Origin: Dehalococcoidia bacterium
Lineage (GTDB): Bacteria; Chloroflexota; Dehalococcoidia; Lucifugimonadales; JAGWBF01
Length of the DNA stretch: 64,000 bases
NCBI GenBank assembly: GCA_965197415.1
Contig: OZ240207.1
Span: forward strand, 1,053,046 to 1,117,045
Reading direction: 5' to 3'
In this document: piece after piece, positions 9,437 to 34,399 of the stretch
Position numbering within the stretch: the first letter of the stretch is position 1
Layout: each line of letters opens with the position of its first letter
The notes under the pieces: model-generated
Told to the model about the DNA's origin: nothing
The model's input: the letters and a program-made list of their open reading frames with translations, nothing else
Database searches by the model: none
Made by a program: the position numbers and the translations under genes

Positions 9437-9509
9437 GTGTAAGATGGCTGTTAGAAAAATGGCGAATTGGCATGATATTGGTGTAAGATACGGCCCAAAG
9501 TGCTATAAT
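9437..9509 (+). promoter_or_regulatory. Candidate promoter for the hybrid kinase gene: extended -10 TGcTATAAT with two GTGTAAGAT direct repeats
   Basis: TATAAT at 9504-9509 is preceded by TG at 9501-9502. GTGTAAGAT occurs at 9437-9445 and 9481-9489 (44 bp apart), and the second copy sits at the -35 position. The element lies about 90 nt upstream of ATG 9600, inside the divergent intergenic region. Confidence 0.3.
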
Positions 9510-9599
9510 CGACCCCAAAGCGTTGGCCCCGCTTCATCCAGGCGGCGGCGCTTCCGCGGGTGTTCAACGTGTCCCGCAACCCAGACTTGAGGCGGTGCA

Positions 9600-14014: not shown

Positions 14015-14236
14015 ATGACTTCCACGGAAAGCTGGGTGGACATTGCGGAGGTGGCTGCGCATCTACGGGTGACCAAAGACTCGATATATCGTTGGGTGGA
14101 CTCGAAGAACTTCCCAGCTCACCGCGTAGGTCGTCTGCTCAGATTCAAGCTGTCGGAAGTAGACGACTGGGTGCGGTCTGGAAGTGACGAGGACGCTCCC
14201 TCAGAGGGTGAGCGCAGAAGGACGAATGTCAACTAG
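14015..14236 (+). CDS. Excisionase/MerR-type (HTH_17-like) DNA-binding protein, probable operon regulator
   Basis: 73 aa. WVDIAEVAAHLRVTKDSIYRWVDSKNFPAHRVGRLLRFKLSEVDDWV is the classic AlpA/Xis-type helix-turn-helix. The stop overlaps the next gene start by 11 nt. Confidence 0.8.
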   Translation: MTSTESWVDIAEVAAHLRVTKDSIYRWVDSKNFPAHRVGRLLRFKLSEVDDWVRSGSDEDAPSEGERRRTNVN

Positions 14237-15470
14237 ATCGATTGGTTTCAACTTGGCACTCATTCCTGACGGAGCGGCTTCTGCGGAAACCGATGACTTA
14301 TCACCGTCCTGTGACGATGCCGACGGAGCCTGTCTAAAGGAAGCTATCCATAGCCACCTCTTGAACTTGGGATTCTCCAAGAATGGTAGCGGGTACTTTG
14401 TAGATGGGATTTTGACGAAGCAGAAGATTCGGAATCTGCATGCTGCTCAGCGGCTGGATATTCTGGAGCGGCAGAGGGCCTTTGTCGAAACACATGGTGC
14501 TGAGCTTGCAGAGCACTTTGCGAGCGGTAGCCAGATTGATCCCTCGTTGATTGACCCAGAGCTGGTTGAGGTCTTGCCGGACTCTCTTGATTCTCGGTTA
14601 TTCAGATTTGCTACCCTGTTGTGGTCCGTCCCCGTGTCACAGGGTTTCGGACGTCGACTCCGTTTCCTTGTTAGAGACAGACAGAATGGCTGTCTGATTG
14701 GCCTCTTTGCTCTGGGAGACCCGGTCTTCAATCTTTCTGCGCGGGACAATTGGATCGGTTGGACTCACAAAGACCGTCGTGACCGACTCGTCCATGTCAT
14801 GGATGCCTATGTTGTTGGCGCGGTCCCTCCCTATTCGCAGATGATTGGCGGAAAGCTCGTCGCGGCATTGATGGGCAGCACGGAAGTGAAACGAGCCTAC
14901 GAACGGAAATATCTGGCCCGTCAATCGGTTATTCGCGAGAGGAACCACCGGGCGCGTCTGGTCTTGTTGACTACGACATCGGCGCTGGGAAGGTCATCAA
15001 TCTACAATCGCCTGGCCATACCAGACGGTCCTCGCTTTCTTAGAATCGGAACGACCAAGGGATTCGGCCATTTTCACCTACATGGCAAAATATTCGATTC
15101 GCTTAGAGAGCATCTGAAGGCGAAGGGGCACCCCTATGCTTCAGGCCACAGGTTCGGCATGGGACCGAACTGGAAGCTGCGCGTCGCCAGAGCTGCCCTC
15201 GAAGACGTTGGCATTGATGGGAATTCAATCTTGAAGCACGGCGTCGAGCGAGAGGTGTATGTGATCCCGCTGGCCGACAACTGGAAGGAGGTCCTATCGG
15301 GCAGGCAGAAGAAGGTGCGCTCCCTTACGAGGTCGGCCGCCGAGATATCAGGGTTCTGCCTGAGTCGTTGGATCGTGCCGCGGTCAAATCGTGACAAGAG
15401 CTTTCAGAGCTTCGACAGTGACAGCATCATAACGGCCTTATTGAACGGGGGGCCCGGGTCAGCATGGTAA
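14226..15470 (+). CDS. druA: DUF4338-family protein, Druantia DruA-like
   Basis: The track ORF starts at GTG 14184; ATG 14226 has GAAGGA upstream. DUF4338-type core: LWSVPVSQGFGRRLRFLVRDRQNGCLIGLFALGDPVFNLSARDNWIGWTHKDRRDRLVHVMDAYVVGAVPPYSQMIGGKLVAAL. Confidence 0.75.
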   Translation: MSTRSIGFNLALIPDGAASAETDDLSPSCDDADGACLKEAIHSHLLNLGFSKNGSGYFVDGILTKQKIRNLHAAQRLDILERQRAFVETHGAELAEHFASGSQIDPSLIDPELVEVLPDSLDSRLFRFATLLWSVPVSQGFGRRLRFLVRDRQNGCLIGLFALGDPVFNLSARDNWIGWTHKDRRDRLVHVMDAYVVGAVPPYSQMIGGKLVAALMGSTEVKRAYERKYLARQSVIRERNHRARLVLLTTTSALGRSSIYNRLAIPDGPRFLRIGTTKGFGHFHLHGKIFDSLREHLKAKGHPYASGHRFGMGPNWKLRVARAALEDVGIDGNSILKHGVEREVYVIPLADNWKEVLSGRQKKVRSLTRSAAEISGFCLSRWIVPRSNRDKSFQSFDSDSIITALLNGGPGSAW

Positions 15471-18430: not shown

Positions 18431-19506
18431 GACGCCTAAGCGCCAGCGAAGTCCACGCCAGCAAGGTAGCTGAGCTTGGATTGGATGAGACTGCATTGGA
18501 CCTCACCTCGATCGAGGCAATCGCCGCTGCGCTGAGGAGAGCGGCGAACTTCTTGTGCCCTTGCGCAGCAACTACGTTAGTTCGTGCAGTTGCCGAGCCT
18601 TTGCGTGGGCTGATTCAGGACATGGAGGAGACAAGGGAGATAGTCCGGGAAACGCTGGACGCCATGATCGCTATTGGCGACTTCCTTGAGTACCGCGACA
18701 TAGAATCAGATGAGACATCTCGTGCGGCAGTGCTCCTATACGCGGCTCCCCCCAGCTTTGTATCTCGGGACAGTGGCACAGCGATTCTCTTAGGCGTCTC
18801 TACTCCAGCACTCGACAGTCTCGCGGACCGCATCGACTATGAGAACCACCTGCGACGTCTCAGCCCTAGTCTTGGTGAAGACCTCGGTGCAGACCTTGAG
18901 CAACTAGGGTTCAGTGAAGTACCTCAAGACCAGTGGTTGCAAATGCCTCGACGAGAAACCCCGACTCAGCATTTGGCTCACTTGGACCGCCTTCTAAACG
19001 CAGCTGTGCCTTCGGGGGAGGTGGCTGGATTGTCAATACTCGACTGGGACCGCCCGGTCCGGTTCTACCGCGGGCGGTGGACGTCGGCAGGTTCGCTATC
19101 TGGACGGTTTGTGGCGCGGCGTAGTCAGGCCTATGGTGGAGATCTATGGTGCTACATAGAGATAAGCAGCGGAATGCCTGAGCGATTGGTGGATTTTCCA
19201 CTGGGGGACAGTCGATGGCGCGGCTGCGATGAGGCATGGCGTTTGCAGATGGCGATCGACGCCAATAGAGGAAGTGCGCAGGTGTTCAGGATACATCCAG
19301 GCCCAGAGAAATCATATGTGATGCAATTCTTCTCTCCTTTGCCGATGTGGGCTCGACGCAGACTTGACTCGGTAGGACACCTGGTGCCGAGCCCTGGATG
19401 TCTCTTCGCCTATCGATTGGCCGAGGCTGAGTTAGCGGAGGAAGTGCATTTCGCTCATGACGTGCTGTGGCTTGAGGAACTGAACGGCAGCTCAGAACCT
19501 TCATGA
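18415..19506 (+). CDS. Protein of unknown function in the DruC/DruD position
   Basis: 363-aa ORF. Alternative start ATG 18427 forms an ATGA overlap with the upstream stop, which suggests translational coupling. No recognisable motif. Confidence 0.75.
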   Translation: MEMGMRRLSASEVHASKVAELGLDETALDLTSIEAIAAALRRAANFLCPCAATTLVRAVAEPLRGLIQDMEETREIVRETLDAMIAIGDFLEYRDIESDETSRAAVLLYAAPPSFVSRDSGTAILLGVSTPALDSLADRIDYENHLRRLSPSLGEDLGADLEQLGFSEVPQDQWLQMPRRETPTQHLAHLDRLLNAAVPSGEVAGLSILDWDRPVRFYRGRWTSAGSLSGRFVARRSQAYGGDLWCYIEISSGMPERLVDFPLGDSRWRGCDEAWRLQMAIDANRGSAQVFRIHPGPEKSYVMQFFSPLPMWARRRLDSVGHLVPSPGCLFAYRLAEAELAEEVHFAHDVLWLEELNGSSEPS

Positions 19507-19525: not shown

Positions 19526-22500
19526 ATGTCACTAACTATCATAGAGACCATGCAAGAGATGCAAGGCGCTCTACAGGATTACATCGAAGCGACGTACCAC
19601 ATCAGTCATTCGACCCTTGTAGTTCAGCGCCAGGAGATTCTCCGAACACTTGGCGTCATCCACCAGCGACCCTACTTGGAAAGCACTCCTCGTTACAAGA
19701 CCGGCACGGCGTTCAAGGATCTTGGACTTGACTCGGCCGCCCTTGAAGTCTTCGGCGCTGTCTCCGATGCTGATGGTGAGCTCAACCGCCTGATCTACGA
19801 TCCTCCTTATGAACACCAAGCAGCTTCCACGAAGCTTTCGCTTGTAGACGGCCGTAGCCTCGTGGTCATGACAGGGACTGGGTCTGGCAAAACGGAATGC
19901 TTCCTGTTGCCAATTCTGGGCAAGCTGGCCTCCGAAGCCCAAAGGAAGGGGCAGGTATTTGGAGAAACGGCAGCAGTAAGGGCGATGGTGCTATACCCAA
20001 TGAACGCCTTGGTCAATGACCAACTTGGCCGCCTCAGGCTCATGTTCGCGGACCAACGCATTAGCGGCAAATTCATCAGGTGGTCCGGAAGGCCCGCACG
20101 ATTCGCCCGATATACGAGCCGGACCTTGTACCCGGGAGTACGTGACTCAAGGAAGGACCAAATCAGGCTTGCCCCAATAAGGGACTACTACATCAACAAT
20201 CTGGAAATAGCGGGAGACCCCTCTTCTCCTCAACAAGCTACAGCCAAAGCACTGATCCGGGAACTGCAAGAGCGGGGTAAATGGCCTGCCAAACCCGACC
20301 TGATGAGGTGGTACGGCCAAAGAGGCCAGCGATGGCAGGACTCGAAGACTGGAGAATTCAGGCGAGGTGTAACGCTGCCGGAGGACCCGGAGTTGATTAC
20401 ACGACACGAAATACAAGCAGCACCTCCCGACATCTTGGTCACGAACTACTCGATGTTGGAATACATGATGCTGCGCCCGTTGGAACGGCCAATCTTTGAC
20501 CAAACGCGCGATTGGCTTCGTGCAAACCCAGAAGAGTCATTCCTGTTGGTCATCGACGAGGCTCACCTCTACCGTGGGGCTGCGGGCACAGAGGTAGCGC
20601 TACTCATACGGCGTCTGTGCACACGACTCGGGATTCCGCCAAAGCGTCTACAGGTTATATGCACCAGCGCGAGCATGCAGAATCCAGACTACGCCCTGGA
20701 GTTTGCTGCCCAACTCACAGGAAAGGAATCAGGAGACTTCAGCAAAGTGGAAGGTGAGCTCTTGTTACGTCCCGACGAAGCGAAGGGCTCGGTCGAAGAT
20801 ACCCGCGCGCTAGGGGCGATTGACCTGAGGGCCTTCTACGATGCAGAGACCGACTCTGATCGCATGTCCCACGTTGCAGAGTTCTTACGTTACCGGAGGG
20901 TCGAGCCGTCAGGCCAACTGCATCAAACGTTGCACAGCGCGCTAGAAACTTTCCCGCCCCTGGCGAAACTTATCAACCTGACGATGAGAGAGGCTCAGCC
21001 GGTCGAGGAGCTTTGGGAGGTGCTATCCGATGAAGTCCCTCTTGAAGTCACGACACGCGCAGTCACCAACCTAATCGCCCTCGCTAGCTCGGCTAAGCCT
21101 GATTCAAACCAGCCAGGTTTGATGCCGTGCCGAGTGCACTCCTTCTTCCGGGGTCTCGCCGGACTGTGGGTCTGCATGGACTCTCAATGCAGTGCGCTGC
21201 CTGAAGGTCAACGAGGAGGGCCTTCAGGGAAGCTGTTCAGCCAACCCCGCGATGTATGCGATTGCGGTTCTAGAGTCCTCGAACTCTACACGTGCCGAAA
21301 TTGCGGTACAGCTTACGCTCGAGCCTACACCAATGATGTAGAGGAACCCGATTTCCTTTGGTCAGAGCCGGGCGGAGCGCTAAGGACATTATCTGGGCAA
21401 TACGGCGAATTGAATGCAATCGACCTTCTTCTCGAAGAGCCTGTCTTCGCAGACAGGGTTGAAGCGGCAGACTACGATCTGGTCACAGGACGTTTGAACC
21501 CCCTCAATTTGGGGACGCGGAACCGGCAAGTCTACCTCCGTGCCAACCGTGCGGATCCTCCGGCCACAGATGAGGGCGCCATCGACTCATCCTTGGGTGA
21601 ATTCAAACCGTGCGCAGGGTGCGGCGAGACCGCCGGATTCGGCCGAACCTCTGTTCAGGACCATCAGACCAAGGGTGACCAGCCCTTCCAAGCATTGATT
21701 TCAAAGCAGATTCAGGTGCAGCCCCCTGGTCCCAATCCGGCAACCAAACTAGCCCCCCTTCGCGGGAGGAAAGTCCTTATTTTCTCGGATTCTAGGCAGA
21801 TGGCTGCCCGCTTAGCGCCAAACATCCAGACCTATTCGACGCGAGACGCTTTGCGCCCTCTGATCGTCTTTGGATACGCTCGCCTAAGTGGAAATGCGAC
21901 AATCAACAGATTCCTTTCCCTGGAGGACCTTTACCTTGCAGTGTTGGTCGCAGCAAAGGAGATGGGGGTAAGGCTGAGGCCCGAATTGAAGATCGGTGAG
22001 AGTTTCGAAGGGGAGAATACGGTGGAGCAGGCAGTCGGAAGCGGTGCCTTAGAGGACGATGGTCGACTCTTGGAGCTCCTCATGGAACTCAAGAATTCGC
22101 CACCGCCTGAATCCCTGCTTCGCTCGATCATGGCTTCGATCACCGATAGGTACTATGGTTTGGAGTCGCTCGCGTTAGCATCGCTTGTAGAGCGCCCTGC
22201 CCACACCTCCAAGGTCATGGCTCTGCCTGATATTCCCCAGTATGCGGAGTCAGATGACGAAAAGCTCGCGCTCGCCCGCGCATGGCTACGCTGTTGGATG
22301 AGATCGGGAGTTTGGTTGAGCCGAATGCCAGGAGCGTGGTCGTCTACAGTTGTTCGCTCACACGCAGGCAGATTCCAGGCTATGAGTCGTCTTCTACCCG
22401 ACTCGTCAGGTAGGGGGCTCTTTGAAAGGAAGTGGCTTCCGCAGCTGTTGGAAATGTTTGCCGAGCCGACGACCAGAGGAATGTACCGACTGGCTGGGAA

Positions 22501-25057
22501 AGAGTTGTCGCTGGCGATCGGAGGAGACTGGTCGTACTGCCAATCCTGCCGGACAGCCCAAAGACCCATTCCCGGAAGAATCACTTGTGCCAACTGCGGG
22601 CGTGACGCTACTGAACCCATCGACCCAGACACAGACTCTGTCTTTGTCGCCAGGAAAGGGTATTACCGGACGAGCACATTGGCCGCATTGAAGTCACCGC
22701 CCATACCACCACTGGCGCTCATTGCTGCAGAACACACTGCGCAGGTCAACACCGCACAGGCGGACGAGATATTCTCTAAGGCCGAAGAACACGAGATCCT
22801 CTTTCAAGATGTGGATTTGGGACCTGGGGACACGGGGCGAGAGAGACCGGCGATAGATGTCCTCTCTTGCACGACCACTATGGAAGTTGGCATCGACATA
22901 GGTGCTCTTTCAGGGGTGTCTCTGAGGAACATGCCGCCAGCAAGGGCGAACTACCAACAGCGTGCCGGCCGTGCCGGCCGTCGAGGAACGAATATCGCAA
23001 CCGTAACTGCATTCGGTAGTGCTGACAGTCATGATGAGCACCACTTCGAACATCCAGACCAGATGATCCGAGGAAAGGTCGACGACCCAACACTGACGCT
23101 AGGCAATCCGGTAATTGCGCGACGTCACGTTACGGCACATCTGCTGCAAAGATACCACCAGGCAAGATTACCTCAGATTAGTCCAGAAGATCAGCCCCAT
23201 CTGTTCGCTGTGCTTGGGACGGTCGCGGACTTCAAGAATCCCGGCAAGGTATTGAATCGTGTTGATCTCGAAGAATGGCTGCGCTCGAATGAGGTCGACT
23301 TGAAGGGAGATGTCGATGCATTGCTCCCAAGAGAGGTTGCTGGCACCGAACGCCAAGAACTTCTGGACCGATTAGTCGAAGCAACGCTAGAGTCCATTGA
23401 TACTGCGCTCGAGAACGATTCCCCAGGGTCGGATGAAGGCAGACAGCTAGGCGAGGAAGAAGATACGGCGAGCTTGGAGGCGCCGGATGAGCCTGGTGAG
23501 GAAGGACCTGTCCGAGACCCTTCTGAGAATCTTCTCGACCGCCTGCTCTACAAGGCAGTGCTTCCTCGTTACGCATTTCCCACAGACGTCGCCGGATTTC
23601 ATGTCTTCGACCAAGAGCGCTCAACCCGCTATCGCGCGGCCTTTCGCTATACGCCATCGCAGGGGCTTGCTATTGCGCTTTCTCAGTACGCACCGGGAAA
23701 GGAGGTCTGGATCGATGGCAAACTCTGGACTTCAGGAGCACTCTACTCGCCGATATCGAACGATCGGTACGATGCTTGGAACAGCCGACGGCTTTACTAC
23801 GAATGCAAGAATTGCCACTATGCTCTGACCAGATCTGTGGGGGAAGGAGAAAGGGGAGAGACCCGAAACTGTGAGGGGTGTGGTGGCATAGGAACCATGG
23901 GTCCGGCGAAGAATTGGCTGAGACCTCCTGGGTTTGCACATCCCGTCAGCCGAGAAGAGGGTACGTCGCCAGATGACCAACCCACCAGGAGTTATGCCAC
24001 CCGCGCCAAGTTGACGATGGCCACGCCATCAGATCCAGAGAAGTGGACGGATCTCAATGAGCGTATTCGCAAACACTACGCCAGGGATTATCTTCTCGTC
24101 ACAAACCGTGGGCCGCGTGACGAAGGTTACTCGTATTGCACGAGATGCGGCCTCATCGAACCGACCGCAACGCGGAACGGGCAGGTCGGAACAGACCACC
24201 GTAAGCCATTTCCAGACCCATCCAATCCGAATTGTCCGGGAGCCGGAACGACTACTGGATTGGTGCTAGGAACGGACTTCATCAGCGATGTGCTTCTCAT
24301 ATCTATAGGCACTAGGCCTCCGCTCACCCTGCTTCCTGGGCTGCTGCCCACTAACGTTGCGCTGCGCACTATCAGCGAAGCGCTCACAGTGGCCGCCTGT
24401 AGGCTCTTGGAATTGGACCCCAACGAGTTGCAGGCCGAATACCGACCAGCGCTTACTGAAGATGGGCGCCAAGGTCTCGAAGCAGAGATCTACCTTTATG
24501 ACACTTTGCCCGGTGGTGCTGGCTTTGCTCGGCGTGTCGGTGAACTGGGACTAGATGTCTTTGAGGAAGCCCTACATATCCTGGAGGAATGCCCAGAGAC
24601 CTGCGACCGGTCATGCTACCGCTGCTTAAGAAGCTACAAGAACAAGTTTGAACACGATCTCTTGGATCGTCATCTCGGCGCAAGTCTGCTGAGATATCTG
24701 ATCTACGGAAGCAATCCGACAATGGACGCTGGACGTCTTCAAGGTTCAACTAAACTGCTCTTCGAAGATCTCATTAGACAACAGACCCAGACTACGGCGG
24801 TAGCGTTCAATCACCAGGCGACACTCCCCAGCCTTGGCCCAGTCACGATTCCAATATACGTGAGACGGGCCGATGGAACCGAATTCTTCGTGGGTCTCTG
24901 CGAACCGCTCACGCGCGATACCCCGGCTGATGTTGTGCTCAGGGACGTAAAGCAGTGGTGTCCCACAATCCCGGTCGTGCTCTGCGATGAGATTTTGGTG
25001 TCGCGGAACCTCCCTGCCGCCACGAATCACATTCTGGAGAAGATGGGTTTGGGCTAA
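19526..25057 (+). CDS. druE: Giant SF2 helicase with C-terminal DUF1998/MrfA-type zinc module, Druantia DruE-like
   Basis: 1843 aa. Walker A MTGTGSGKTECF; DEAH box LLVIDEAHLYRGAAGTE; motifs V-VI TTTMEVGIDIGAL..NYQQRAGRAGRRG. Several CxxC ribbons (CDCGSRVLELYTCRNCG; CQSCRT..CANCG; CKNCHY..CEGCG). Terminal cluster CPETCDRSCYRCLRSYKNKFEH. RBS GGGGGGAG. Confidence 0.85.
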   Translation: MSLTIIETMQEMQGALQDYIEATYHISHSTLVVQRQEILRTLGVIHQRPYLESTPRYKTGTAFKDLGLDSAALEVFGAVSDADGELNRLIYDPPYEHQAASTKLSLVDGRSLVVMTGTGSGKTECFLLPILGKLASEAQRKGQVFGETAAVRAMVLYPMNALVNDQLGRLRLMFADQRISGKFIRWSGRPARFARYTSRTLYPGVRDSRKDQIRLAPIRDYYINNLEIAGDPSSPQQATAKALIRELQERGKWPAKPDLMRWYGQRGQRWQDSKTGEFRRGVTLPEDPELITRHEIQAAPPDILVTNYSMLEYMMLRPLERPIFDQTRDWLRANPEESFLLVIDEAHLYRGAAGTEVALLIRRLCTRLGIPPKRLQVICTSASMQNPDYALEFAAQLTGKESGDFSKVEGELLLRPDEAKGSVEDTRALGAIDLRAFYDAETDSDRMSHVAEFLRYRRVEPSGQLHQTLHSALETFPPLAKLINLTMREAQPVEELWEVLSDEVPLEVTTRAVTNLIALASSAKPDSNQPGLMPCRVHSFFRGLAGLWVCMDSQCSALPEGQRGGPSGKLFSQPRDVCDCGSRVLELYTCRNCGTAYARAYTNDVEEPDFLWSEPGGALRTLSGQYGELNAIDLLLEEPVFADRVEAADYDLVTGRLNPLNLGTRNRQVYLRANRADPPATDEGAIDSSLGEFKPCAGCGETAGFGRTSVQDHQTKGDQPFQALISKQIQVQPPGPNPATKLAPLRGRKVLIFSDSRQMAARLAPNIQTYSTRDALRPLIVFGYARLSGNATINRFLSLEDLYLAVLVAAKEMGVRLRPELKIGESFEGENTVEQAVGSGALEDDGRLLELLMELKNSPPPESLLRSIMASITDRYYGLESLALASLVERPAHTSKVMALPDIPQYAESDDEKLALARAWLRCWMRSGVWLSRMPGAWSSTVVRSHAGRFQAMSRLLPDSSGRGLFERKWLPQLLEMFAEPTTRGMYRLAGKELSLAIGGDWSYCQSCRTAQRPIPGRITCANCGRDATEPIDPDTDSVFVARKGYYRTSTLAALKSPPIPPLALIAAEHTAQVNTAQADEIFSKAEEHEILFQDVDLGPGDTGRERPAIDVLSCTTTMEVGIDIGALSGVSLRNMPPARANYQQRAGRAGRRGTNIATVTAFGSADSHDEHHFEHPDQMIRGKVDDPTLTLGNPVIARRHVTAHLLQRYHQARLPQISPEDQPHLFAVLGTVADFKNPGKVLNRVDLEEWLRSNEVDLKGDVDALLPREVAGTERQELLDRLVEATLESIDTALENDSPGSDEGRQLGEEEDTASLEAPDEPGEEGPVRDPSENLLDRLLYKAVLPRYAFPTDVAGFHVFDQERSTRYRAAFRYTPSQGLAIALSQYAPGKEVWIDGKLWTSGALYSPISNDRYDAWNSRRLYYECKNCHYALTRSVGEGERGETRNCEGCGGIGTMGPAKNWLRPPGFAHPVSREEGTSPDDQPTRSYATRAKLTMATPSDPEKWTDLNERIRKHYARDYLLVTNRGPRDEGYSYCTRCGLIEPTATRNGQVGTDHRKPFPDPSNPNCPGAGTTTGLVLGTDFISDVLLISIGTRPPLTLLPGLLPTNVALRTISEALTVAACRLLELDPNELQAEYRPALTEDGRQGLEAEIYLYDTLPGGAGFARRVGELGLDVFEEALHILEECPETCDRSCYRCLRSYKNKFEHDLLDRHLGASLLRYLIYGSNPTMDAGRLQGSTKLLFEDLIRQQTQTTAVAFNHQATLPSLGPVTIPIYVRRADGTEFFVGLCEPLTRDTPADVVLRDVKQWCPTIPVVLCDEILVSRNLPAATNHILEKMGLG

Positions 25058-25090: not shown

Positions 25091-26398
25091 ATGAGCGTCG
25101 CATGCCCGAAGTGCGGAAATGAGGAATTGAGGTTGGACCCCATCAGTCGGTTCCGTCTCGGAATACCGCAACTCAGCGATCTGGAGCAGGCTGTCGTCGT
25201 GCTGTCTTGTCAGCCGTGTGGCAGCGACTTCCAATTTCGTATCCATGGACGAAATCGACCGAGCTTCTCGCACTTCATGCATGTTGGGGACGATGGCAAG
25301 CCTGAAACGGATGGTCTCCGTCGGGGATACATATCATTGTGGCCTGACACGGTCGTCAAGAAGGCGTCTGTCGATTATCGCTTCGCGCACAAGGATGGGC
25401 AGAATATTCTGTGGCCGATGAACGAGGCCAGGATTCAGACCGGCACAGGCGTCGACCAATACGGCGACCCTGACCTCATGGCGGAGTTCGCGAAGGAGTA
25501 TCTGAAACAGCACTGGGTGCTCTTGAAGCCGGGACGGTTGCCGCAAACACTCGTCGAAGTCATGCCGTCGCTGCTACTGCTGGTCACCGCAGCCGAGCTG
25601 GCGACGAAGGCTTTCGCCCTGCGTTCGAAGGGTGAAACACCCCGAACACACGACCTAGTAGAGCTCTATGACGGCTTGGACCCTGAGCATCGAGCGGCTG
25701 TCGAGTCTCGATTCGGCGGGTGTCGGCTAGTTGTGGGTCTCACATCCATTGGCGCCGATGCTCCTAAGATTCAGGACATATTGGGCACGTACGCCGACAT
25801 CTATGGCGGCAAGCGCGGCGCCTACCAAGAGGCCAAGTTCTACGCCGAGCCCACGACCATGCTGCCAGAGGCTAGCAATTTAAGGGGTGCCAACCTTATC
25901 AAGGGGAACACCCCGTATCCGACTTTCATGCCTTATCTGGTTGAGGCGATCGTGGACTGCTACTACTTCTACTCAGGGCTTGAGCGGCTTCGCAGACGCG
26001 GCGCTGAGATACATGAACTCGGCCCTAACTCAACGAGCCACGGTTACGGAGACTGGGTTCTGAGGCCTTCGTCGTTGGACCTCGCGGTGATCATCGTTTC
26101 ACAACAGGAGTCCAAAGACTCTGGCCACAATGACCTCCCCTCCTTTGCGAGCTTCAAGTCACATCACCCGACTGGCCTCCAGGCCGACTGGATGTACGGA
26201 GGGAGCACTCTTCTCTTCTACGACGCAACCGGCTCAAAGCCTCGGGACGGCATCGAGACCATCGCTGACATTGAATGCCACATCATAAGCGAGGAACAAG
26301 TTCGCATGCACTCCCGCGATCTGGATAGGTTGGCCGACAGACTTGAAGCAATCGACGCCGGAGACACGCCCCTGGGTGCCCTCCCGCCAGTTCGCTAG
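25091..26398 (+). CDS. Zn-ribbon protein with a central HEPN-like helical segment, unknown function, co-oriented 33 nt after druE
   Basis: 435 aa. N-terminal CPKCGNEE..(x31)..CQPCGSD ribbon. The central string LLLLVTAAELATKAFALRSKGETPRTHDLVELYDGL resembles the HEPN (PF05168-type) E-L-x-x-K-A ... T-H-D-L-x-x-L helices. The HEPN call comes from pattern memory only. Confidence 0.6.
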   Translation: MSVACPKCGNEELRLDPISRFRLGIPQLSDLEQAVVVLSCQPCGSDFQFRIHGRNRPSFSHFMHVGDDGKPETDGLRRGYISLWPDTVVKKASVDYRFAHKDGQNILWPMNEARIQTGTGVDQYGDPDLMAEFAKEYLKQHWVLLKPGRLPQTLVEVMPSLLLLVTAAELATKAFALRSKGETPRTHDLVELYDGLDPEHRAAVESRFGGCRLVVGLTSIGADAPKIQDILGTYADIYGGKRGAYQEAKFYAEPTTMLPEASNLRGANLIKGNTPYPTFMPYLVEAIVDCYYFYSGLERLRRRGAEIHELGPNSTSHGYGDWVLRPSSLDLAVIIVSQQESKDSGHNDLPSFASFKSHHPTGLQADWMYGGSTLLFYDATGSKPRDGIETIADIECHIISEEQVRMHSRDLDRLADRLEAIDAGDTPLGALPPVR

Positions 26399-26901: not shown

Positions 26902-27598
26902 CTAACCCTGTTCCGAAACACGGCTTGAGATACTTACGGTGATAGGGCCTCTTCCGCTGAACCCATGCCCACCTGGGTTCATATAGCCACTGTTACCAAC
27001 ATTTCCAGTTCTTCCCGCGATCATGTATGTATATCGGTGTAATTCAGGTACAGAATCTCTTTCCCTGATGCATATTTGCAAGTGGGTTCCCGAAGGGTCT
27101 AGATAGGCAGTAAACTCGAGGCCCGCGAGCAGTTCGAGAAGCCTCGACGATGTCCATAGATTCTGCTTGACTGGCTCATTGTCCGGTGCTTGAGCAACAG
27201 CTTGGGTATAGCACTTCTGTGCTTCGCTGAATCTCCCCAAGCACATCAGCGCATTCCCCTTGTTGAATGTGGCATGCCAATTGTCAGATGCAACCTCGTT
27301 GTATGCCGAAATCGCCTCTTCGAAGCGGAGCATGTCAGCATACGTGTTGGCCAGATTGAATTGGTATGTGGCGGGACCGGGAGCTAACTCAATCACTTGT
27401 AGATAGTCTTTCAAGGCCCCTCTGTAGTCCTTAAGTTCGACCCTGGAGTTGGCTCGGTTGAAGTAAATCATGTGGCCGATCATGATACTTTGAGGGAATT
27501 TCGTCATCGTGGTGATCGCCCTATCGTAGTCCTCTATCGCCTCGACGTGATTACCCAGTTCGGCGTGAGCGTTGGCTCTCAAGAAATAAATCCTATAG
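26902..27598 (-). pseudogene. C-terminal part (TPR repeats plus an unknown C-terminal domain) of an FRG-TPR gene split by an IS insertion
   Basis: The reading frame is open up to the IS boundary (..YRIYFLRANAHAELGNHVEAIEDYDRAI..). The track reports only the part from the first Met (26902-27582). It joins 29196-30039 in frame once the IS and one ATAG copy are removed. Confidence 0.8.
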
Positions 27599-29195
27599 GA
27601 GTTTGTCTCATAGACTGGTGGGCGAGTTGACTAACACAGGTGTGGGAGCGATGGGCCTGAAGAGAGGTCGGCCCGTCCAGTTCCACCGGCCGCTTGTCGG
27701 GCCCCGGAAAGGTCGTCTGCCTCTCTTAGTTCCATGGGGCCTAGGCCAAGCCCCAAGGGGCTTGGCCACTGCGCCATAGCTTGAGCAAGTTATGGGTCAT
27801 CCCTGCCAGCGACCACTCACTCTGTGCAGCGCCCAACCCCCGTCTCATAAACCGTCGGAACCCCTGTCCTTCCTTGACCTGTCCGAACACCGGCTCCACC
27901 AGTACACCCCGCTTCTTGTACTGAGCTCGGCCTCGCTTTGTCAGCAGCTTGCGCTCCATCCTGTCCCTCGGGCTCAGTCCTTTTGGTATACGCCCTCGGA
28001 GACACCCCTTCTCCCGTAGCATCTTCCGCTGTTTCCAATCCTTGGTGGTGGCAATAAGAAGCTCAGGCATCTCTGGCCAGGAGCAAGCCCTGATGTTGGC
28101 CTCACTCCAGTACCCGGCATCGGCCAGGCCCGCTTTGGGCCGCTCCTCTATGCCGGCTGCCTCCAGAGTATGCGCCATGGTCTGGAGCATCGGCTCCAGT
28201 TGCTGCACATCGTTGGCCTCTTGGGTCACTCCAACGGCTACTATGATCTGCTCCTCGCTCACCACCGCCTGGGCATTGTAGCCCTGCACGTACCCTTGCC
28301 TGGTCTTCATGATGCGGCTGTCCGGGTCGGTGGTATTAGCCTTCGCCTCTTCGGTAGGAAGTGGCTCTACCACCTTGGGCTTTCGCCCCCGCTTCTTTTT
28401 GCCTGTGGCCTCTTCTTCTGCCCGCCGTTGCTCCACGTGCTCTTGGACAGCCTTGGCTGCTGCTTCAGCCTCCCGCTGCAGACGTTCCTTGGCTTCCTTC
28501 AGGCGCTTGAGCCGCTCCCTCCGTCCCCCTAGCCCTTCCGGTAGCTCATCCCCTCGCCGGTCGGGACCGTAATGGGCATCCTCTTCAGCATCCGCTGCCT
28601 TGGCCTCTGCCAACATGCGCTGCACTTCTTCCTCAATGGCCTGGTGGCTCCGGTTGGTGCCCAGCGCCGCATTGGCTGCCACCTTCGTCCCATCAAGAGC
28701 CACTACCCCCAGCTTCACCAGACCCGCTTCATGGCATAACCTCAGTACCTCTACAAAGAGCTCCTCCAGCGCCTCCTCCTGCTCCGCTCTAAAGCGACAG
28801 ATGGTACGGAAGTCTGGCTGCCGGTTCGCCGCCACCACCCGGAAACCTACATCTTCCTCGAGAGCACGGGCTATGCGCCTGGAACTCCGTAGACCCAGGC
28901 AGTAGGCGTACAACAGGATGGCCACCATCATTTCCGGATCGTAGGCCGCTGCACCCCAGCCATCACTTCGGTAGGCTGCATAGAACTCCCTCAGATCCAT
29001 CTGGCCTACTGCATCCACAATGAACCAGGCCAGGTGACCCTCCCTCAACCAATCCCTCATGGACGGCGGCATCAAGTAGCTCTGGTCTCGCTCACAGCGC
29101 AGAAGGTTATAAGCCATAGTATCGTACCTGCCAGTTGTTTCTACCAGCTTACTGCTTCACCAACCCCACGGAAAGAGAGTCTATGGGACACGCTC
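27599..29195 (-). mobile_element. IS5/IS1182-type insertion sequence, 1597 bp, complete
   Basis: Imperfect 18-bp terminal inverted repeats: GAGTTTGTCTCATAGACT (27599-27616) and AGTCTATGGGACACGCTC (29178-29195), 15/18 complementary. They are flanked by a 4-bp direct repeat ATAG (27595-27598 and 29196-29199). The element carries one DDE transposase ORF. Confidence 0.8.
27741..29117 (-). CDS. IS1182-family DDE transposase
   Basis: 458 aa. N-terminal InsH/DUF772-type block LLRCERDQSYLMPPSMRDWLREGHLAWFIVDAV..AAYDPEMMVAILLYAYCLGLRSSRRIA. DDE candidates VALDGTKV, LADAGYWS, EPVFGQVKE. Central coiled-coil Lys/Glu-rich linker. Confidence 0.85.
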   Translation of the reverse strand: MAYNLLRCERDQSYLMPPSMRDWLREGHLAWFIVDAVGQMDLREFYAAYRSDGWGAAAYDPEMMVAILLYAYCLGLRSSRRIARALEEDVGFRVVAANRQPDFRTICRFRAEQEEALEELFVEVLRLCHEAGLVKLGVVALDGTKVAANAALGTNRSHQAIEEEVQRMLAEAKAADAEEDAHYGPDRRGDELPEGLGGRRERLKRLKEAKERLQREAEAAAKAVQEHVEQRRAEEEATGKKKRGRKPKVVEPLPTEEAKANTTDPDSRIMKTRQGYVQGYNAQAVVSEEQIIVAVGVTQEANDVQQLEPMLQTMAHTLEAAGIEERPKAGLADAGYWSEANIRACSWPEMPELLIATTKDWKQRKMLREKGCLRGRIPKGLSPRDRMERKLLTKRGRAQYKKRGVLVEPVFGQVKEGQGFRRFMRRGLGAAQSEWSLAGMTHNLLKLWRSGQAPWGLA

Positions 29196-30039
29196 ATAGT
29201 GGTCGGGATTGAGGTCCACGAACCTGCCGTAGGCCTCTATGGCGTGTTGAAATGCACCTTGCTGGTAATACCGATTCCCTGCGATGAGATAATCGTCCTG
29301 GCTGAGTGAAACGGGATATGCAACACGGTTGGTCTCTGCGAAGCCGTGTGCGTCCAGAAACAATGACCTGTGGCTTACATCAAGCAGTCCGAGTTCTCCG
29401 ATGAGTTCATGTTTATCCTTCTGGGCGATTTTGATTTCCGCGATCACATTGCTATCCTCGGAGATCTTCGGCCTCCCGATGACAAACACGCTGCGTTGCC
29501 TGAGTATCCTAGCCAACGCGTCTCCACTTGCCATAGGTTCCCAATACGCTATGTTCGGAGGTTCTCCCTTCGGAAGGAATAGGCTTGCGACTCCCTGCTC
29601 GCTCTCGTCACTTGGGATCATAGCTACCTGAATGGGATCATTCAGATTCATGACGAACAACTTCCCATCTGCCTCAGGTTCTTCGCAAGCGAACCAGAGT
29701 CCGACAAGCGGGTTCCAACTGAAATCCAGCAAACCGGTGGCGGCTCTCAGATGTTGCAATTTGGCGAGCAACTGCAAGTCCGAAAGCTCACGCCCCAATT
29801 CAATGCCAAGTCCCTGTGTGCGTGCCGGAGCAATTAGTGTGCTGTTGTGATAGTCCAGATAGAGACTTGGAAATTCAGGACTATTTTGTACACCTTCTCC
29901 ACGATGCTTTCTCAACCTTCGCGTCGCCGCGGAGTGAAGAGGCCAGTGTGCATTGCCCTGTCCAACTAAAGGCGTAGGTTCCAACACCCAATGCCGTGGT
30001 GGTATCGCTGATCTTGCTCAGATACTCGTTAAGTTTCAT
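29196..30039 (-). pseudogene. N-terminal part (FRG domain plus first TPR) of the IS-split FRG-TPR gene, probably also frameshifted near its 5-prime end
   Basis: FRG motifs: LVGQGNAHWPLHSAATR, LAKLQHLRAATGLLDFSWNPLVGLWFAC, RILRQRSVFVIG. The ORF runs into the IS and stops there (..NPDHYERVP*). ATG 30039-30037 lies 5 nt after the RES stop in the pre-IS66 arrangement, but is in a different frame from the FRG frame (track start GTG 29987). Confidence 0.7.
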
Positions 30040-30040
30040 G

Positions 30041-31585
30041 GTAATTGATTAGCGGGTTAGGCGGCCCGTGGAGGGGTTGCGGTGGTGGATGGGAGATGTT
30101 TTAGACTTTGGCTATGTGTGAGGCCAAAGGCATCCGTCCCTGTGAACGCGACGAGCTGATGACGCTGGTCAAGGGGCTGCAGAGGCAGATTGCCCAGTTG
30201 CAAGGGCAGAACGCCCAGTTGGCGGCGGCCAACGAACGGTTGAGCAAGCAACTCGCAGAACTCCAGCGAGCCGGAAAGCGGCAGGCGGCTCCGTTCTCCA
30301 AGGGCAGGCGGACCTCCAGCCCCAAGCGGCCTGGGCGCAAGCCGGGTCAAGGGATGTTCAGCTACCGCAAGCTGCCGTCCCCAGATCAGGTCACAGAGCC
30401 GATCGTAGAGGTGACCGTACCTGGGGACACATGTCCTGGATGCGGAGGCAGACTCGAGGATGAGGGAATGGGAGTTGCCTACGTGACAGACATTCCTCCG
30501 ATTCGGCGTCCGCAGGTGACGGCGTACCGGGTGCAGATATGCCGGTGCCGGTCCTGCGGCAGGCAGGTCCGAGGCCGGCATCCCGATGTTGCCCCGGACC
30601 AGTACGGGGCCAGCGCCCATCGGGTTGGGAGGCGAGTGATGGCGGCGGCTCACGTGCTCCACTACGGGGTGGGCGTTCCGGTAAGAAAGGTTCCCGCTGT
30701 GCTCAGAGCGCTGACCGGAGTGGAAGTGAGTCAGGGAGCGATCAGCCAGGACGCGCTGCGACGTGCCACGGGTGCTGTGGGGGAAGCCTACCACAAGCTG
30801 CGGACATCGGTGGGTGTGAGTCGACTCGTCCACACCGATGACACTGGATGGCGCGTGGGGGGTGAGTCCGCCTTTCTGATGGCCTTCGAGACGGATGAGG
30901 CTACGGTATACCAGGTCCGTGCTCGTCACCGGAACGAAGAGGTGCGCGAGGTGGTTCCGTCGGACTATGGCGGAGTGATGGTGACGGACCGGGGGCGGAG
31001 CTACGATGCTCAGGCTCTGTCCGGGGTGAAGCAACAGAAGTGCCTGGCCCATGTGCTGCGCTCGATCAGTGAGGTGGTACAGACCAGGACAGGGAGAGGA
31101 CGCAGCTTCGGCAAGCGTCTGAAGGGTCTTCTCAGAGAAGCGATGGAACTGTGGGGGGCATATCACCGGGGAGAGGCGTCGGACTTTGGTGTGCAGGCCG
31201 AGCGGTTGAAGCGAGAGGTGAGATATCATCTCCGCGACCGTCCGATGGCGGATGCGGACAACTACAGGCTGCAGAACGAGCTCGGCTGGCACGACGATCG
31301 GGGCAACCTGCTGCGTTTTCTGGACGATCCGAGCATTGAGCCGACCAACAACCGTGCTGAGCGAGCGCTCCGCCCGGCAGTGATCGCGCGGAAGGTGTCG
31401 CACTGCTCGAAGAGCGTCGAGGGCGCCGATGCCTTCTCGGCGTTCACCAGCGTAATCAGAACTCTGGCCCGCAATGGTGGCGACCGGTCTGTGGTGGATC
31501 GGCTCTGCGATGTGTTCAGCGGCGCTCCCCGCCACTCTCCTTCACTCTGAACCTCTCCACAGACTCCCCTCCGCTAATCAATTAC
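30041..31585 (+). mobile_element. IS66-family insertion sequence, single-ORF (ISBst12-like) type, 1545 bp, complete
   Basis: Perfect 15-bp terminal inverted repeats: GTAATTGATTAGCGG (30041-30055) and CCGCTAATCAATTAC (31571-31585). They are flanked by an 8-bp direct repeat GTTTCATG (30033-30040 and 31586-31593). An 8-bp duplication is the IS66-family hallmark. Confidence 0.9.
30108..31550 (+). CDS. IS66-family transposase (TnpC-like)
   Basis: 480 aa. N-terminal leucine-zipper-like QLQGQNAQLAAANERLSKQLAELQ; zinc finger CPGCGG..CRCRSCG; DDE region HTDDTGW.., VMVTDRGRSYD; signature EPTNNRAERALRP. Confidence 0.9.
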   Translation: MAMCEAKGIRPCERDELMTLVKGLQRQIAQLQGQNAQLAAANERLSKQLAELQRAGKRQAAPFSKGRRTSSPKRPGRKPGQGMFSYRKLPSPDQVTEPIVEVTVPGDTCPGCGGRLEDEGMGVAYVTDIPPIRRPQVTAYRVQICRCRSCGRQVRGRHPDVAPDQYGASAHRVGRRVMAAAHVLHYGVGVPVRKVPAVLRALTGVEVSQGAISQDALRRATGAVGEAYHKLRTSVGVSRLVHTDDTGWRVGGESAFLMAFETDEATVYQVRARHRNEEVREVVPSDYGGVMVTDRGRSYDAQALSGVKQQKCLAHVLRSISEVVQTRTGRGRSFGKRLKGLLREAMELWGAYHRGEASDFGVQAERLKREVRYHLRDRPMADADNYRLQNELGWHDDRGNLLRFLDDPSIEPTNNRAERALRPAVIARKVSHCSKSVEGADAFSAFTSVIRTLARNGGDRSVVDRLCDVFSGAPRHSPSL

Positions 31586-31597
31586 GTTTCATGTTAG

Positions 31598-33124
31598 TCA
31601 GTCGGCATCCTCAGCCAGCTGCTGTCCCGCTTCCTGATCTTGGTCCTGATTCCTCCGGGAGACAGTAACCTTGGGAGTCGGTACAGCAAAATGAAACCTT
31701 ACCGTGCCACCCGACACCTTGTGATCACGGTTTAAGGGAAGGGCTTTGGTTTCATACTTAACTCCAGAAACAGCTAGAACCTTCAGACTTTGCGGGTCGA
31801 GCCTAAGTATGCTGTCCCCGTGATTGACTTGGGTTTCTGGGTTAACGGTCGTAGGATCTGCACCACTCTGTTCATTTGCCGCAGTTGCTCCCTGGGGTTC
31901 AGTTTGGATAATTGAATCTTCGCTCGTTTCGGTTCCCGGCTGTGGAATACCCGACCGTGGTGGTATCCTGACTCGAAGACCGGGAGCCGGTTCGTCAGCC
32001 TCGACACTACGGGCACCGACAAACAGCACTACGTTGCGTCCGCCCTTTCCGGTCTGGGCTGAACTGAAGATAATCCCATGAAGGCGAGGTTCGACCCGGT
32101 TGGCCAGATACTCGGATACAATCTGGGTTGCAATATATTCTCGTGCCTCCTCCTGCGGCATGACAGGCCTGCTCATTTCACCAACCAATTCCTTTAGGAA
32201 CCTCTCTCGGCTTCGTTTTTCAATGTAATCGGGATCAAAGTGACTGACCTCGGAATCCGGGTTCGACAGTGCTTCAAGATCAAGGACGTTGATCGGGCTC
32301 AACAGGTCGAACTTCACAAGGACCACGAAGCTCCCCACAGGGGCACGAACCTCTGACACGCATGTTTCTTCTTCTAAGGCACCGTAGAAGACCGGAATGC
32401 CCTCAGCGTTCATTCGGCCGGCCGTAGCCTTGTCCGAAGGGGGAGGACCGAGCCGACTACTCAAGGATTCGAGTATCGACTGTATTTCCGACTCTGAATG
32501 CGCTGTCCGAGCTCGCCAAAAAGAGCTATCCTTGTCGCCCGGATGTATTTCACGAACAACTGGTTTGCCCCAGATCGTCCTAAGAGAAGCCAAGTCTTCG
32601 AAAATTCTTTCTAATGTGGCCGCAGTGGTAGCGCCGAAGAACCGGGCACAGGTACGGATTTCTTCTTTGGAGTCCCACCAGGCTGAGCGGAGGTCTGAGG
32701 CGTCAGCCTCCTGTTCTATATGCAACATCCTATGGTTGTAAGGGTTCTCCTCTTCTCCTGCGACGGTTTCCGTCTGAGCCAGCCTCTTGAACAAATTCTC
32801 CCTCACGTCCGCCGCGATGCCTTGTTCAATGCCAGCAACGTCTGCTATAACGGTTTCGGCGTCGTCCGAGCCTTGCCTAAATTGTTCCGGTACATCGCAC
32901 TCAGGGACTGGTATGAAGTGCTCTTCCAACACGCGATGGATGCGGTTGGCCAGATCCGCCAGGGTAAACGCAGGATTTGTCGCACGGCAATAGGTGCACT
33001 CCCCTCGGGTACCTTCTTGCTCTACCTGTTTGGCTAGGAACTTGTCGCCTATGCAGGCGTGGCACACATGCTGAGACCCTTCAGGCTTCAAACCGCTATC
33101 TCCAGTGGTTGTTAGGATCGACAT
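31598..33124 (-). CDS. RES-domain protein with an N-terminal zinc ribbon (HEPN/RES-NTD1-like) and an uncharacterised C-terminal extension
   Basis: 508 aa. CHAC-x18-CTYC ribbon. RES signature: FWRAR.., AGRMNAEGIPVFYGALEEETCVSEV.., GIIFSSAQTGKGGRNVVLF (Arg, Glu and Ser positions all present). Confidence 0.8.
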   Translation of the reverse strand: MSILTTTGDSGLKPEGSQHVCHACIGDKFLAKQVEQEGTRGECTYCRATNPAFTLADLANRIHRVLEEHFIPVPECDVPEQFRQGSDDAETVIADVAGIEQGIAADVRENLFKRLAQTETVAGEEENPYNHRMLHIEQEADASDLRSAWWDSKEEIRTCARFFGATTAATLERIFEDLASLRTIWGKPVVREIHPGDKDSSFWRARTAHSESEIQSILESLSSRLGPPPSDKATAGRMNAEGIPVFYGALEEETCVSEVRAPVGSFVVLVKFDLLSPINVLDLEALSNPDSEVSHFDPDYIEKRSRERFLKELVGEMSRPVMPQEEAREYIATQIVSEYLANRVEPRLHGIIFSSAQTGKGGRNVVLFVGARSVEADEPAPGLRVRIPPRSGIPQPGTETSEDSIIQTEPQGATAANEQSGADPTTVNPETQVNHGDSILRLDPQSLKVLAVSGVKYETKALPLNRDHKVSGGTVRFHFAVPTPKVTVSRRNQDQDQEAGQQLAEDAD

Positions 33125-33565
33125 CTACCATCAGGCGCGACCCTTGCCCGGGCTGCCGCCTACTGGGGATTCCATGTGTCCTGAGCTCGGCTTTCTTGAC
33201 GTCCTCAAGTATCAGGTCTGCGTAGCGAGGTTTCAGTGAGAGGAGCAGGGGTTTCGGTGACTGCTCCAAGTAGTCGTCGAGTTGCCCGACGTACTCGGGG
33301 TTAGGGTTGAAGCCTCCCGCGGTCCCGATCCTGCGCTTGAACTCAATGAATGTGTCGAGAACCGCGAGGTCCACGGCGCGGCGCGAACCTTGGGCGGGTG
33401 GATTCTCCTCAATGATCTCCTTATCCTCACGAGGCCCGTGAGGATAAGGAGATTACGAACGGCGCTGGTGATGTTCGCCTCGGGCTCGCCAGCATCGTGC
33501 CGCCGCAGAATCTCGGCGGCAGCCTGGGCGTACCGGGCATCGCTGTAGTCTATCTGAATGGACAC
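33096..33565 (-). pseudogene. Frameshifted gene debris: PD-(D/E)xK nuclease-like N-terminal fragment followed by a truncated ASCH-like fragment
   Basis: Two overlapping track ORFs (33233-33565 and 33096-33374) read through in different frames: ..ANITSAVRNLLILTGLV / EDKEIIEENPPAQGSRRAVDLAVLDTFIEFKRRIG (D..ExK pattern), then LLLSLKPRYADLILEDVKKAELR (ASCH-type start). This is cut off by the start of the RES gene. Confidence 0.45.
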
Positions 33566-33656: not shown

Positions 33657-34106
33657 CTACTCCGGCGTAACGAACTCCCCTAGCCAGCGCACACTGTCAA
33701 TGCTTGGACTTGCCGCCCGGTAGAACCTCTCGTCGGCTGTCCATAGCTCGCAGCCGAAACTCTCCGCCAACGCGAGGTAATGGGCGTCGTAGGCCGCGTT
33801 CTGACTGAGTTGGCTTGCAAGTTGCAGCGCTCTGACGTGGAGGCCCGGCGGCTGGTGGAGTTCGAGCCGCGACTCAAGCAGCCGTGCAATCATGCGGGTA
33901 CTATCGCCGACGTTCAACTCCCCCCGCAAGACGCGCCGGTGGAGAGCGTTGGCGACCTCAAAGGGCATGAGGTGTGGGGCGATGCGGGTTACGTCCCGGG
34001 CAACCCAGGATTGGAGGGCCGCGTGGGCCTTATCAGAGTCATCCTCTTCAACCAACCACTTGACCGCCAGACTCGCATCGACGACTACGGACCCGTTCAC
34101 GCCCAC
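33657..34106 (-). CDS. vapC: PIN-domain toxin VapC
   Basis: 149 aa. VVVDASLAVKWLVEED.., ..PHLMPFEVANAL.., ..YDAHYLALAESFGCELWTADERF gives the acidic PIN residues in the expected order. The start overlaps the vapB stop (GTG 34106, or a GTGA overlap at 34100). Confidence 0.85.
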   Translation of the reverse strand: MGVNGSVVVDASLAVKWLVEEDDSDKAHAALQSWVARDVTRIAPHLMPFEVANALHRRVLRGELNVGDSTRMIARLLESRLELHQPPGLHVRALQLASQLSQNAAYDAHYLALAESFGCELWTADERFYRAASPSIDSVRWLGEFVTPE

Positions 34107-34399
34107 CCCGCGGTTTCGGCATCCCTGATCTCACGGGCTTCACGGATCAAGTCGGCGGAACTCCCAGGAAGAGGTTTGCCCCCGAAAATCTCCTCCCGGA
34201 GCTCTGCAAACAACTCGTCGTCCGGCTTGTCGGACAACAGTCCGGCCATCCCGTTGGATTCGTCCCTTGTCAACTCCCGATCAATGGCGGCCTGGCAGTA
34301 TCCACGCATACTGACGCCTTTGAGTGCAGCAATGGCTTTAAGCCGTCGCTGAAAGGTGGGGTTCAAGTCCAATGTGAGTCTCTTCTTCTTAGCTTCCAT
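34097..34399 (-). CDS. vapB: Ribbon-helix-helix antitoxin VapB
   Basis: 100 aa. KKRLTLDLNPTFQRRLKAIAALKGVSMRGYCQAAIDREL is a CopG/RHH-type N-terminus. The gene is immediately upstream of, and overlapping, the PIN gene. Confidence 0.75.
   Translation of the reverse strand: MEAKKKRLTLDLNPTFQRRLKAIAALKGVSMRGYCQAAIDRELTRDESNGMAGLLSDKPDDELFAELREEIFGGKPLPGSSADLIREAREIRDAETAGWA

Follow-up and report, generated by a model that had tools for sequence, protein, structure and literature searches.

Whether two adjacent genes with conflict-type domains form a functional pair is the question raised by a locus on contig OZ240207.1 of a Dehalococcoidia (Chloroflexota) genome, analysed here in a stretch of 64,000 nucleotides (nt; the window). 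In this locus, an intact gene for a RES protein (31598-33124, minus strand) is followed by the fragments of a second gene (26902-30039), which encoded a protein with an FRG domain and tetratricopeptide repeats (FRG-TPR) and is now interrupted by insertion sequence (IS) elements. A sequence-only reading of the window had proposed that both genes formed a candidate defence or toxin-antitoxin (TA)-like module, of which the RES half survives. Comparison with about 90 related loci favours another explanation, to which we assign, as a whole, a probability of about 0.7: two independent, self-contained single-gene cassettes of the abortive-infection type were probably joined recently in one lineage of sponge symbionts, did not co-evolve as a system, and now lie in a part of a defence island that is breaking down, in a genome associated with a sponge.

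The interrupted FRG-TPR gene and the intact RES gene

Downstream of the RES stop codon (TGA, 31600-31598), the coding strand continues with CTAA and the octamer CATGAAAC (31593-31586), and is then broken by an IS66-family element of 1545 bp (30041-31585, plus strand). The element has perfect 15-nt terminal inverted repeats (31585-31571 and 30055-30041) and a single transposase open reading frame (ORF; 30108-31550, plus strand), which matches Pfam DDE_Tnp_IS66 (E = 5.6e-29) and NCBIfam transpos_IS66 (208.5 bits, cut-off 180). A second copy of CATGAAAC at 30040-30033 completes an 8-bp target-site duplication; the first copy includes the original FRG-TPR start codon, and the ATG within the second (30039-30037) is now severed from its leader and ribosome-binding site. 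The duplication, the terminal inverted repeats and a transposase above the curated cut-off are as in the IS66 family. Classical IS66 elements are organised as three ORFs, tnpA, tnpB and tnpC, and the element described here differs from them in having one. When the element and one repeat are removed in silico, the sequence reads TGA-CTAAC-ATG-AAA-CTT, and TGA-CTAAC-ATG is the same in a related locus with an intact pair, L001, whose RES protein is 98% identical to that of the window and whose FRG-TPR gene, encoding 511 amino acids (aa), starts 5 nt after RES.

The second insertion, an IS1182-family element of 1597 bp (27599-29195, minus strand), divides the FRG-TPR gene into a 5' part (29196-30039, minus strand; FRG domain and first TPR, assigned by alignment to L001, Pfam and PADLOC) and a 3' part (26902-27598, minus strand; TPRs 2-5 and a Gly/Asn-rich C-terminal beta domain, with the stop codon at 26902-26904). 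Their nucleotide identities to L001 are 98.6% (L001 9523-10369, one gap) and 97.4% (L001 10366-11306), respectively. The transposase (29117-27741, minus strand) matches Pfam DUF772/DDE_Tnp_1_6 and exceeds the curated cut-off of NCBIfam transpos_IS1182 (328 bits, cut-off 270), which conforms to the IS1182 family, as do the terminal inverted repeats (agreeing at 15 of 18 positions) and the short, 4-bp duplication ATAG (plus strand; 29196-29199 and 27595-27598). Removal of the element joins DLNPDHY to RIYFLRANAH, identical to the intact homolog of L001, and the two alignment blocks of the window to L001 overlap by exactly 4 nt, so that the ATAG junction proposed in the sequence-only reading was right. 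A 7-bp duplication, CTATGAG, which would also keep the frame and add five residues, was rejected, being contradicted by L001 and by the four ambiguous letters at the empty-site joint.

Both excisions are confirmed exactly by the intact locus L001 and by empty sites on contigs from four other public runs of sponge-associated samples. One empty-site joint leads from 27594 to 29196 and skips 1601 nt (1597 + 4) with 4 ambiguous letters, the other leads from 30032 to 31586 and skips 1553 nt (1545 + 8) with 8 ambiguous letters, and the depth at both joints is about that of the flanking genes. Other copies of the IS elements in metatranscriptomes part from the window at 27599, 29198 and 31586/7, which confirms the element termini. 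The earlier predictions that loss of the IS66-type element with one 8-bp copy places the RES stop 5 nt from an ATG, and that loss of the IS1182-type element with one ATAG copy joins both FRG-TPR parts correctly, were thus borne out. In runs X8 and X9, contig depth is 100-300 times higher for both elements than for the genes around them; in the metatranscriptomes, the IS1182-type element is well represented and the IS66-type element is found in parts. They are very high-copy, active IS families of the community.

The earlier account of a gene knocked out by these two insertions nevertheless missed a third lesion, so that the two IS deletions alone do not restore the gene. The ATG-led ORF (30039-29881) and the FRG body (29987-29181) occupy different frames: the AGA codon of L001, which encodes the Arg of an A-F-R-G-Q motif, is AGTT in the window (29967-29964, minus strand), whereby the motif Arg is lost and the frame is shifted by +1. 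Runs X8, X10 and X11 carry the unshifted allele, and X9 carries that of the window; since both alleles are seen in other runs, the frameshift is probably a real polymorphism and not an assembly error. The expected product of roughly 500 aa is obtained when the gene is restored (511 aa), but 29196-30039 is not one open frame, and of the RES and FRG motifs that had been described as all present, the Arg codon of the FRG motif is destroyed.

The restored product comprises an FRG domain (aa 22-124; Pfam PF08867, E = 9.8e-10, 39.7 bits, cut-off 25), about five TPRs (aa ~250-430), which are matched by Pfam TPR models, and a C-terminal domain of ~70 aa (aa ~440-511; window 26902-27120), a small beta domain with the conserved Gly/Asn-rich motif GRxGNVGNxG...GGxGFxGK. 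The C-terminal 86 aa have no match in Pfam, and a PDB sequence search with the FRG domain gave no meaningful match. Fourteen PADLOC models of the single-gene candidate family PDC-S15 match the restored N-terminal half (best E = 2.1e-18 over aa 3-236), and by these profile matches FRG-TPR is a member of that family.

The RES gene, as had been stated, is intact, with an ORF of 508 aa. A Zn ribbon of the form CxxC...CxxC (aa 21-46; 32987-33064, minus strand) is located upstream of the RES catalytic domain (aa 223-379; 31988-32458, minus strand; Pfam PF08808, E = 1.4e-15, 58.1 bits, cut-off 23.2), and a C-terminal tail of ~130 aa is predicted with low confidence. In an alignment of 21 homologs (41-88% identity), C21, C24, C43 and C46 are invariant, and so are R237, E258 and S355 within the RES domain, which are the presumed catalytic residues. 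The best PDB fold match of the AlphaFold model (predicted local distance difference test score 71.8) is NatT (8qnl_C, probability 0.94). The protein has no match in PADLOC or NCBIfam, and neither its family profile nor its RES domain found a meaningful sequence match in the PDB, solved RES toxins included. Compared with L001, the ratio of nonsynonymous to synonymous differences (pN/pS) is 0.24 for RES and 0.49 for the FRG-TPR remnant; by this comparison, RES is intact under purifying selection. A relaxed selection on the FRG-TPR pseudogene was not deduced from the contrast, as 23 and 19 differences are too few to show it.

Distribution of the two families and the joint between them

The earlier proposal named a lack of recurrent RES/FRG-TPR adjacency in other genomes as evidence against itself, and this is essentially what was observed. 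On the RES side, a profile scan with one genome per species gave 65 loci, in which adjacency was assessed by tblastn and a family hidden Markov model (HMM): an adjacent FRG-TPR gene was detected in 0 of these 65 other RES-bearing genomes. The closest loci (69-78% identity) are all from metagenome-assembled genomes of Dehalococcoidia, and the distant ones (30-45%) belong to Nitrospirales, Latescibacterota, Rhizobiales, Acidobacteriota and others. In locus L002, with a RES protein 89% identical to that of the window, RES is followed by IS debris and no FRG remnant. The family as a whole has 437 homologs, many of which combine PF18870 (HEPN/RES-NTD1) with PF08808, and homologs of about 30% identity occur alone on 788 plasmid records (486 from Klebsiella), annotated as "RES family NAD+ phosphorylase". 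A distant genome, L021, has an FRG-TPR-like gene of 24% identity 3.4 kb from RES, with a DnaE2 fragment and an SRAP gene in between; it was rejected as a second independent pair because of this distance, the intervening genes and a stop codon that splits the FRG-TPR-like gene.

On the FRG-TPR side, the homologs at 91, 85, 81, 80, 74, 70 and 45% identity are solitary in seven of seven cases, and solitary FRG-TPR genes have GmrSD, Fic, SLATT, restriction-modification (R-M), VapBC, integrase and TA genes as neighbours. The family has 489 matches and is full length down to about 42% identity; a scan of metagenome contigs with the FRG-TPR profile yielded 9 loci, mostly short. An HMM check of the FRG-TPR loci detected RES only in L069 and L070, both of the lineage with at least 98% identity. 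The intact, tightly spaced pair is found in the loci L001 and L069 and on the empty-site contigs of the four runs, and by sequence comparison it does not extend beyond loci that share at least 98% identity. The sister locus L069 (1288-2806) comes from another sample and is 99.7% identical to L001; its RES gene is frameshifted in the Zn-ribbon region and its FRG-TPR gene is intact, the reverse of the window. With a coverage of only 6x, the L069 assembly may itself have introduced the RES frameshift.

The alignment of RES-only loci to L001 is limited to 7989-9510, and that of FRG-TPR-only loci begins no earlier than 9503-9524. The joint sequence in L001 and the window is GGCTGAGGATGCCGACTGACTAACATG. 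In the RES-only loci L002 and L010, the corresponding sequence is GGCTGAGG, followed by 11 further codons (AEVEPKLQTSS, then a stop), and in the solitary FRG-TPR locus L071, GGTTGAGGATTCCGACTGACAAACATG serves as the gene's own leader. Comparison of the paired, RES-only and FRG-TPR-only sequences indicates that the pair arose by a join at the microhomology TGAGG (31609-31613, minus strand), from which it follows that the RES C-terminus, EDAD and its stop codon, together with the 5-nt spacer, corresponds to the former FRG-TPR leader. As read from these alignments, the junction is a chimeric recombination scar. Illegitimate recombination at TGAGG would have joined the two cassettes in one recent lineage, swapping the last ~11 RES codons for 4 codons of the FRG-TPR leader and giving the 5-nt spacing. 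In the window strain, FRG-TPR has since been inactivated three times, by the IS66-type element on the start codon, by AGA>AGTT in the F-R-G motif and by the IS1182-type element in the TPRs.

One system or two cassettes

If the two cassettes are self-contained, each protein could combine an effector with its own control. In the RES protein, the Zn ribbon and HEPN/RES-NTD1 might serve as a sensor or autoinhibitory part and the RES domain as an NAD+-degrading or NAD+-phosphorolysing effector; in FRG-TPR, the FRG domain might be an NAD+-directed effector, with the TPRs and the C-terminal domain as a putative sensing or oligomerisation part. NADase chemistry, autoinhibition and anti-phage function of both proteins are suggested by their domain families and the literature. 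Frg and RES have both been placed in the ADP-ribosyltransferase (ART) superfamily, as clades used in prokaryotic immunity (Iyer et al., 2022; PMC9503650). This qualifies the earlier statement that FRG domains are functionally uncharacterised, and it would make FRG-TPR a second effector-bearing protein and not a likely antitoxin. RES activity would be independent of FRG-TPR, and before infection the N-terminal part of the RES protein presumably keeps it in check. A RES protein that needs no FRG-TPR is in keeping with its solitary distribution, with the survival of a strain in which FRG-TPR is knocked out three times over, and with the purifying selection on RES. The puzzle raised earlier, how RES is restrained without FRG-TPR, largely dissolves, because members of this RES family normally occur with neither FRG-TPR nor, it seems, an Xre antitoxin, and have a Zn-ribbon/NTD1 module of their own at the N-terminus.

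Several observations weigh against this explanation. HEPN/RES-NTD1 (PF18870) stays below the Pfam threshold in the RES protein of the window (E = 0.0075, 17 bits, cut-off 27.4); many full-length RES homologs have a precomputed PF18870 match, and the homolog of L021 reaches 35.8 bits. The ART fold of FRG was not recovered, with a probability of 0.4% when the FRG profile was compared with the RES profile by hhalign, and a fold search with full-length FRG-TPR returned only TPR proteins. RES transcripts are present at trace level only in four metatranscriptomes, contig-based RNA depth being a poor measure of absence, and for FRG-TPR few neighbourhoods were sampled (9 distinct full-length loci without the pair). 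The 5-nt spacing is kept in at least three samples and is compatible with co-transcription, hence with some functional coupling in the lineage. Finally, neither family has experimental backing for an anti-phage or NADase activity, and PDC-S15 is itself a candidate.

The tight spacing, the common strand and the intact copies from at least three samples would also be expected if RES and FRG-TPR were a functional two-gene defence operon, consisting of an effector and a sensor, regulator or signal-generating partner, of which half survives here. Both domains are tied to NAD+/ADP-ribose chemistry in the literature, and in the distant genome L021 the two gene types lie no more than 3.4 kb apart. However, adjacency occurs only in loci at least 98% identical, and no pair is seen once identity falls to 89% or below for RES, or to 91% or below for FRG-TPR; at the chimeric joint, FRG-TPR leader sequence has overwritten the C-terminus of RES; each family is abundant alone (437 and 489 matches); and the genes of L021 are parted by unrelated genes, the FRG-TPR-like one containing a stop. 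Such an operon is therefore rather improbable. It would be a long shot that the TGAGG fusion made a real bicistronic operon of two cooperating NAD+-directed ART-superfamily proteins, in which, e.g., FRG-TPR senses infection and makes an NAD+-derived signal or primes RES; if true, this would be a new composite defence system observed at its origin, which IS elements have already begun to take apart in one strain.

That FRG-TPR is an antitoxin or restrainer of a RES toxin is hardly credible, even though canonical RES toxins need an antitoxin, as in RES-Xre systems (PMC9503650), and FRG-TPR, downstream of RES after a short spacer, is placed much as in TA operons: the triple inactivation of FRG-TPR is tolerated with RES intact and under purifying selection, more than 60 genomes have this RES family without FRG-TPR, and FRG-TPR, with 511 aa and a putative enzymatic domain of its own, usually stands alone. 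Nor is an Xre-type gene seen beside RES in the window, none being present among the Pfam matches; the neighbours in the 65 genomes vary widely, no dedicated Xre HMM screen having been made there. It appears unlikely, too, that the whole cassette is dead cargo, with RES also silent (e.g., unexpressed after upstream rearrangements) and merely not yet degraded. The trace RES fragments in the four metatranscriptomes, the gene remnants directly upstream (33096-33565), the IS-ridden region and the frameshifted sister copy in L069 would fit such a state, but the RES ORF is full length and keeps all family-invariant residues, its pN/pS against L001 is 0.24, and the limits of RNA depth and of the 6x assembly noted above apply to both of the apparent losses.

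The idea of a defence-type two-gene locus thus survives in part: the genes are of conflict or defence type and form a tight pair in sister strains inside a defence island, but they are not supported as a functional or co-evolving effector/partner or TA-like module. Both belong to known or predicted families, and no new kind of system is revealed. Read as two joined cassettes, the locus would be a clean worked example of how a defence island is built and eroded, in which two single-gene cassettes were spliced at a 5-nt microhomology and one of them was destroyed by three independent lesions, with intact alleles persisting in the same host population. It also illustrates that tight, operon-like spacing is insufficient for inferring a functional gene pair.

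Genomic surroundings and known systems

The cassette sits between a Druantia type I system (plus strand; DruA, 14184-15470; DruD, 18415-19506; DruE, 19526-25057; E from 5e-139 to 0) and a VapBC pair. The gene in the DruB/DruC position (15464-18430, plus strand, 988 aa) has no match in PADLOC, Pfam or NCBIfam; it could encode a DruB/C that is fused or has diverged. A CD-NTase-like cyclase gene (13039-13884, plus strand, 281 aa), flanked by an NAD-epimerase gene and DruA, matches PADLOC "Cyclase" (PDLC00788, 3.7e-80) over its full length and NCBIfam "DS2_2 anti-phage nucleotidyltransferase" with 216 bits, below the cut-off of 350, and has no obvious effector gene alongside. A 435-aa protein (25091-26398, plus strand) is encoded 34 nt past DruE, with an N-terminal CxxC...CxxC and a weak HEPN hint (E = 0.007); it falls into no family in Pfam, PADLOC or NCBIfam and may be a Druantia accessory gene or another orphan defence gene. 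On the other side, VapC (PIN, 149 aa) and an RHH/ParD-like antitoxin (100 aa) overlap by 10 nt (33657-34399, minus strand), and a similar PIN-RHH pair flanks the solitary FRG-TPR gene of L087. Between VapC and RES, two overlapping short ORFs (92 and 110 aa; 33096-33565, minus strand) look like remnants of a broken gene and have no Pfam match; the homology of the window to L001 reaches only about 270 nt upstream of RES. Farther away, weak PADLOC matches to PD-T4-6 and SduA on an 811-aa protein (9600-12035, plus strand) were discarded as spurious, as Pfam identifies a hybrid histidine kinase/response regulator (GAF-PAS-HisKA-HATPase-REC-Trans_reg_C). In a giant ORF of 7098 aa (37813-59109, plus strand), a scan of the first 3000 aa shows fn3, DUF11 and cadherin domains, a subtilase S8 with P-domain and no fewer than 12 CARDB repeats; the very large protein presumably sits on the cell surface of the sponge symbiont.

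In other genomes, RES homologs show a tight coupling with SNF2-NOV_C helicases (three loci), type I HsdR, DUF1156 methyltransferases, a PLD-SNF2 protein and a PglZ protein. In L007, L011 and L022, RES is directly downstream of a large SNF2 helicase with a NOV_C (DUF3883-like) C-terminal domain, which is about 7 kb away in L003; part of the RES family may be recurrently paired with SNF2-NOV_C. An association of RES with SRAP genes and genes for translesion polymerases, suggested by L002, L021 and one E. coli plasmid, was dropped, as it holds in only 2 of 68 loci.

Among known systems, the type II TA systems of the RES-Xre type (NatT/NatR, PDB 8QNL; RES-Xre of P. putida; MbcT/MbcA) share the RES catalytic domain with the protein described here, from which NAD+ degradation or phosphorolysis may be expected. 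In contrast to these toxins of about 150-250 aa, the RES protein of the window has 508 aa with large N-terminal additions, and it lacks the adjacent Xre/DUF2384 antitoxin that accompanies them. FRG-TPR shares the FRG domain with PDC-S15, which is typically a solitary gene in defence islands, as is FRG-TPR outside the paired lineage; the PDC-S15 models span the FRG half only, and FRG-TPR adds the TPR array and the Gly/Asn-rich C-terminal domain. No published functional test of PDC-S15, which is named only in survey papers, was found, nor any experimental test in the literature of a protein combining Zn ribbon, HEPN/RES-NTD1 and RES. Anantharaman et al. (2013, Biol Direct; PMC3710099) include the latter architecture in their Table 2 and read fusions of such N-terminal domains with toxin domains as abortive-infection-like. 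ZnR-NTD1-RES proteins, common on Klebsiella and E. coli plasmids, and PDC-S15-like FRG-TPR proteins are abundant candidate families for single-gene roles in phage defence or NAD+ depletion. Compared with the plasmid-borne enterobacterial members, the RES protein of the window differs in its identity of ~30%, its sub-threshold NTD1 match and its ~130-aa tail, but it resembles the ZnR-NTD1-RES proteins in its probable arrangement of three parts and in its length, which is about 450-520 aa in this group, and like them it stands without a dedicated antitoxin gene, as they do when they occur alone or inside defence loci of the R-M/BREX type.

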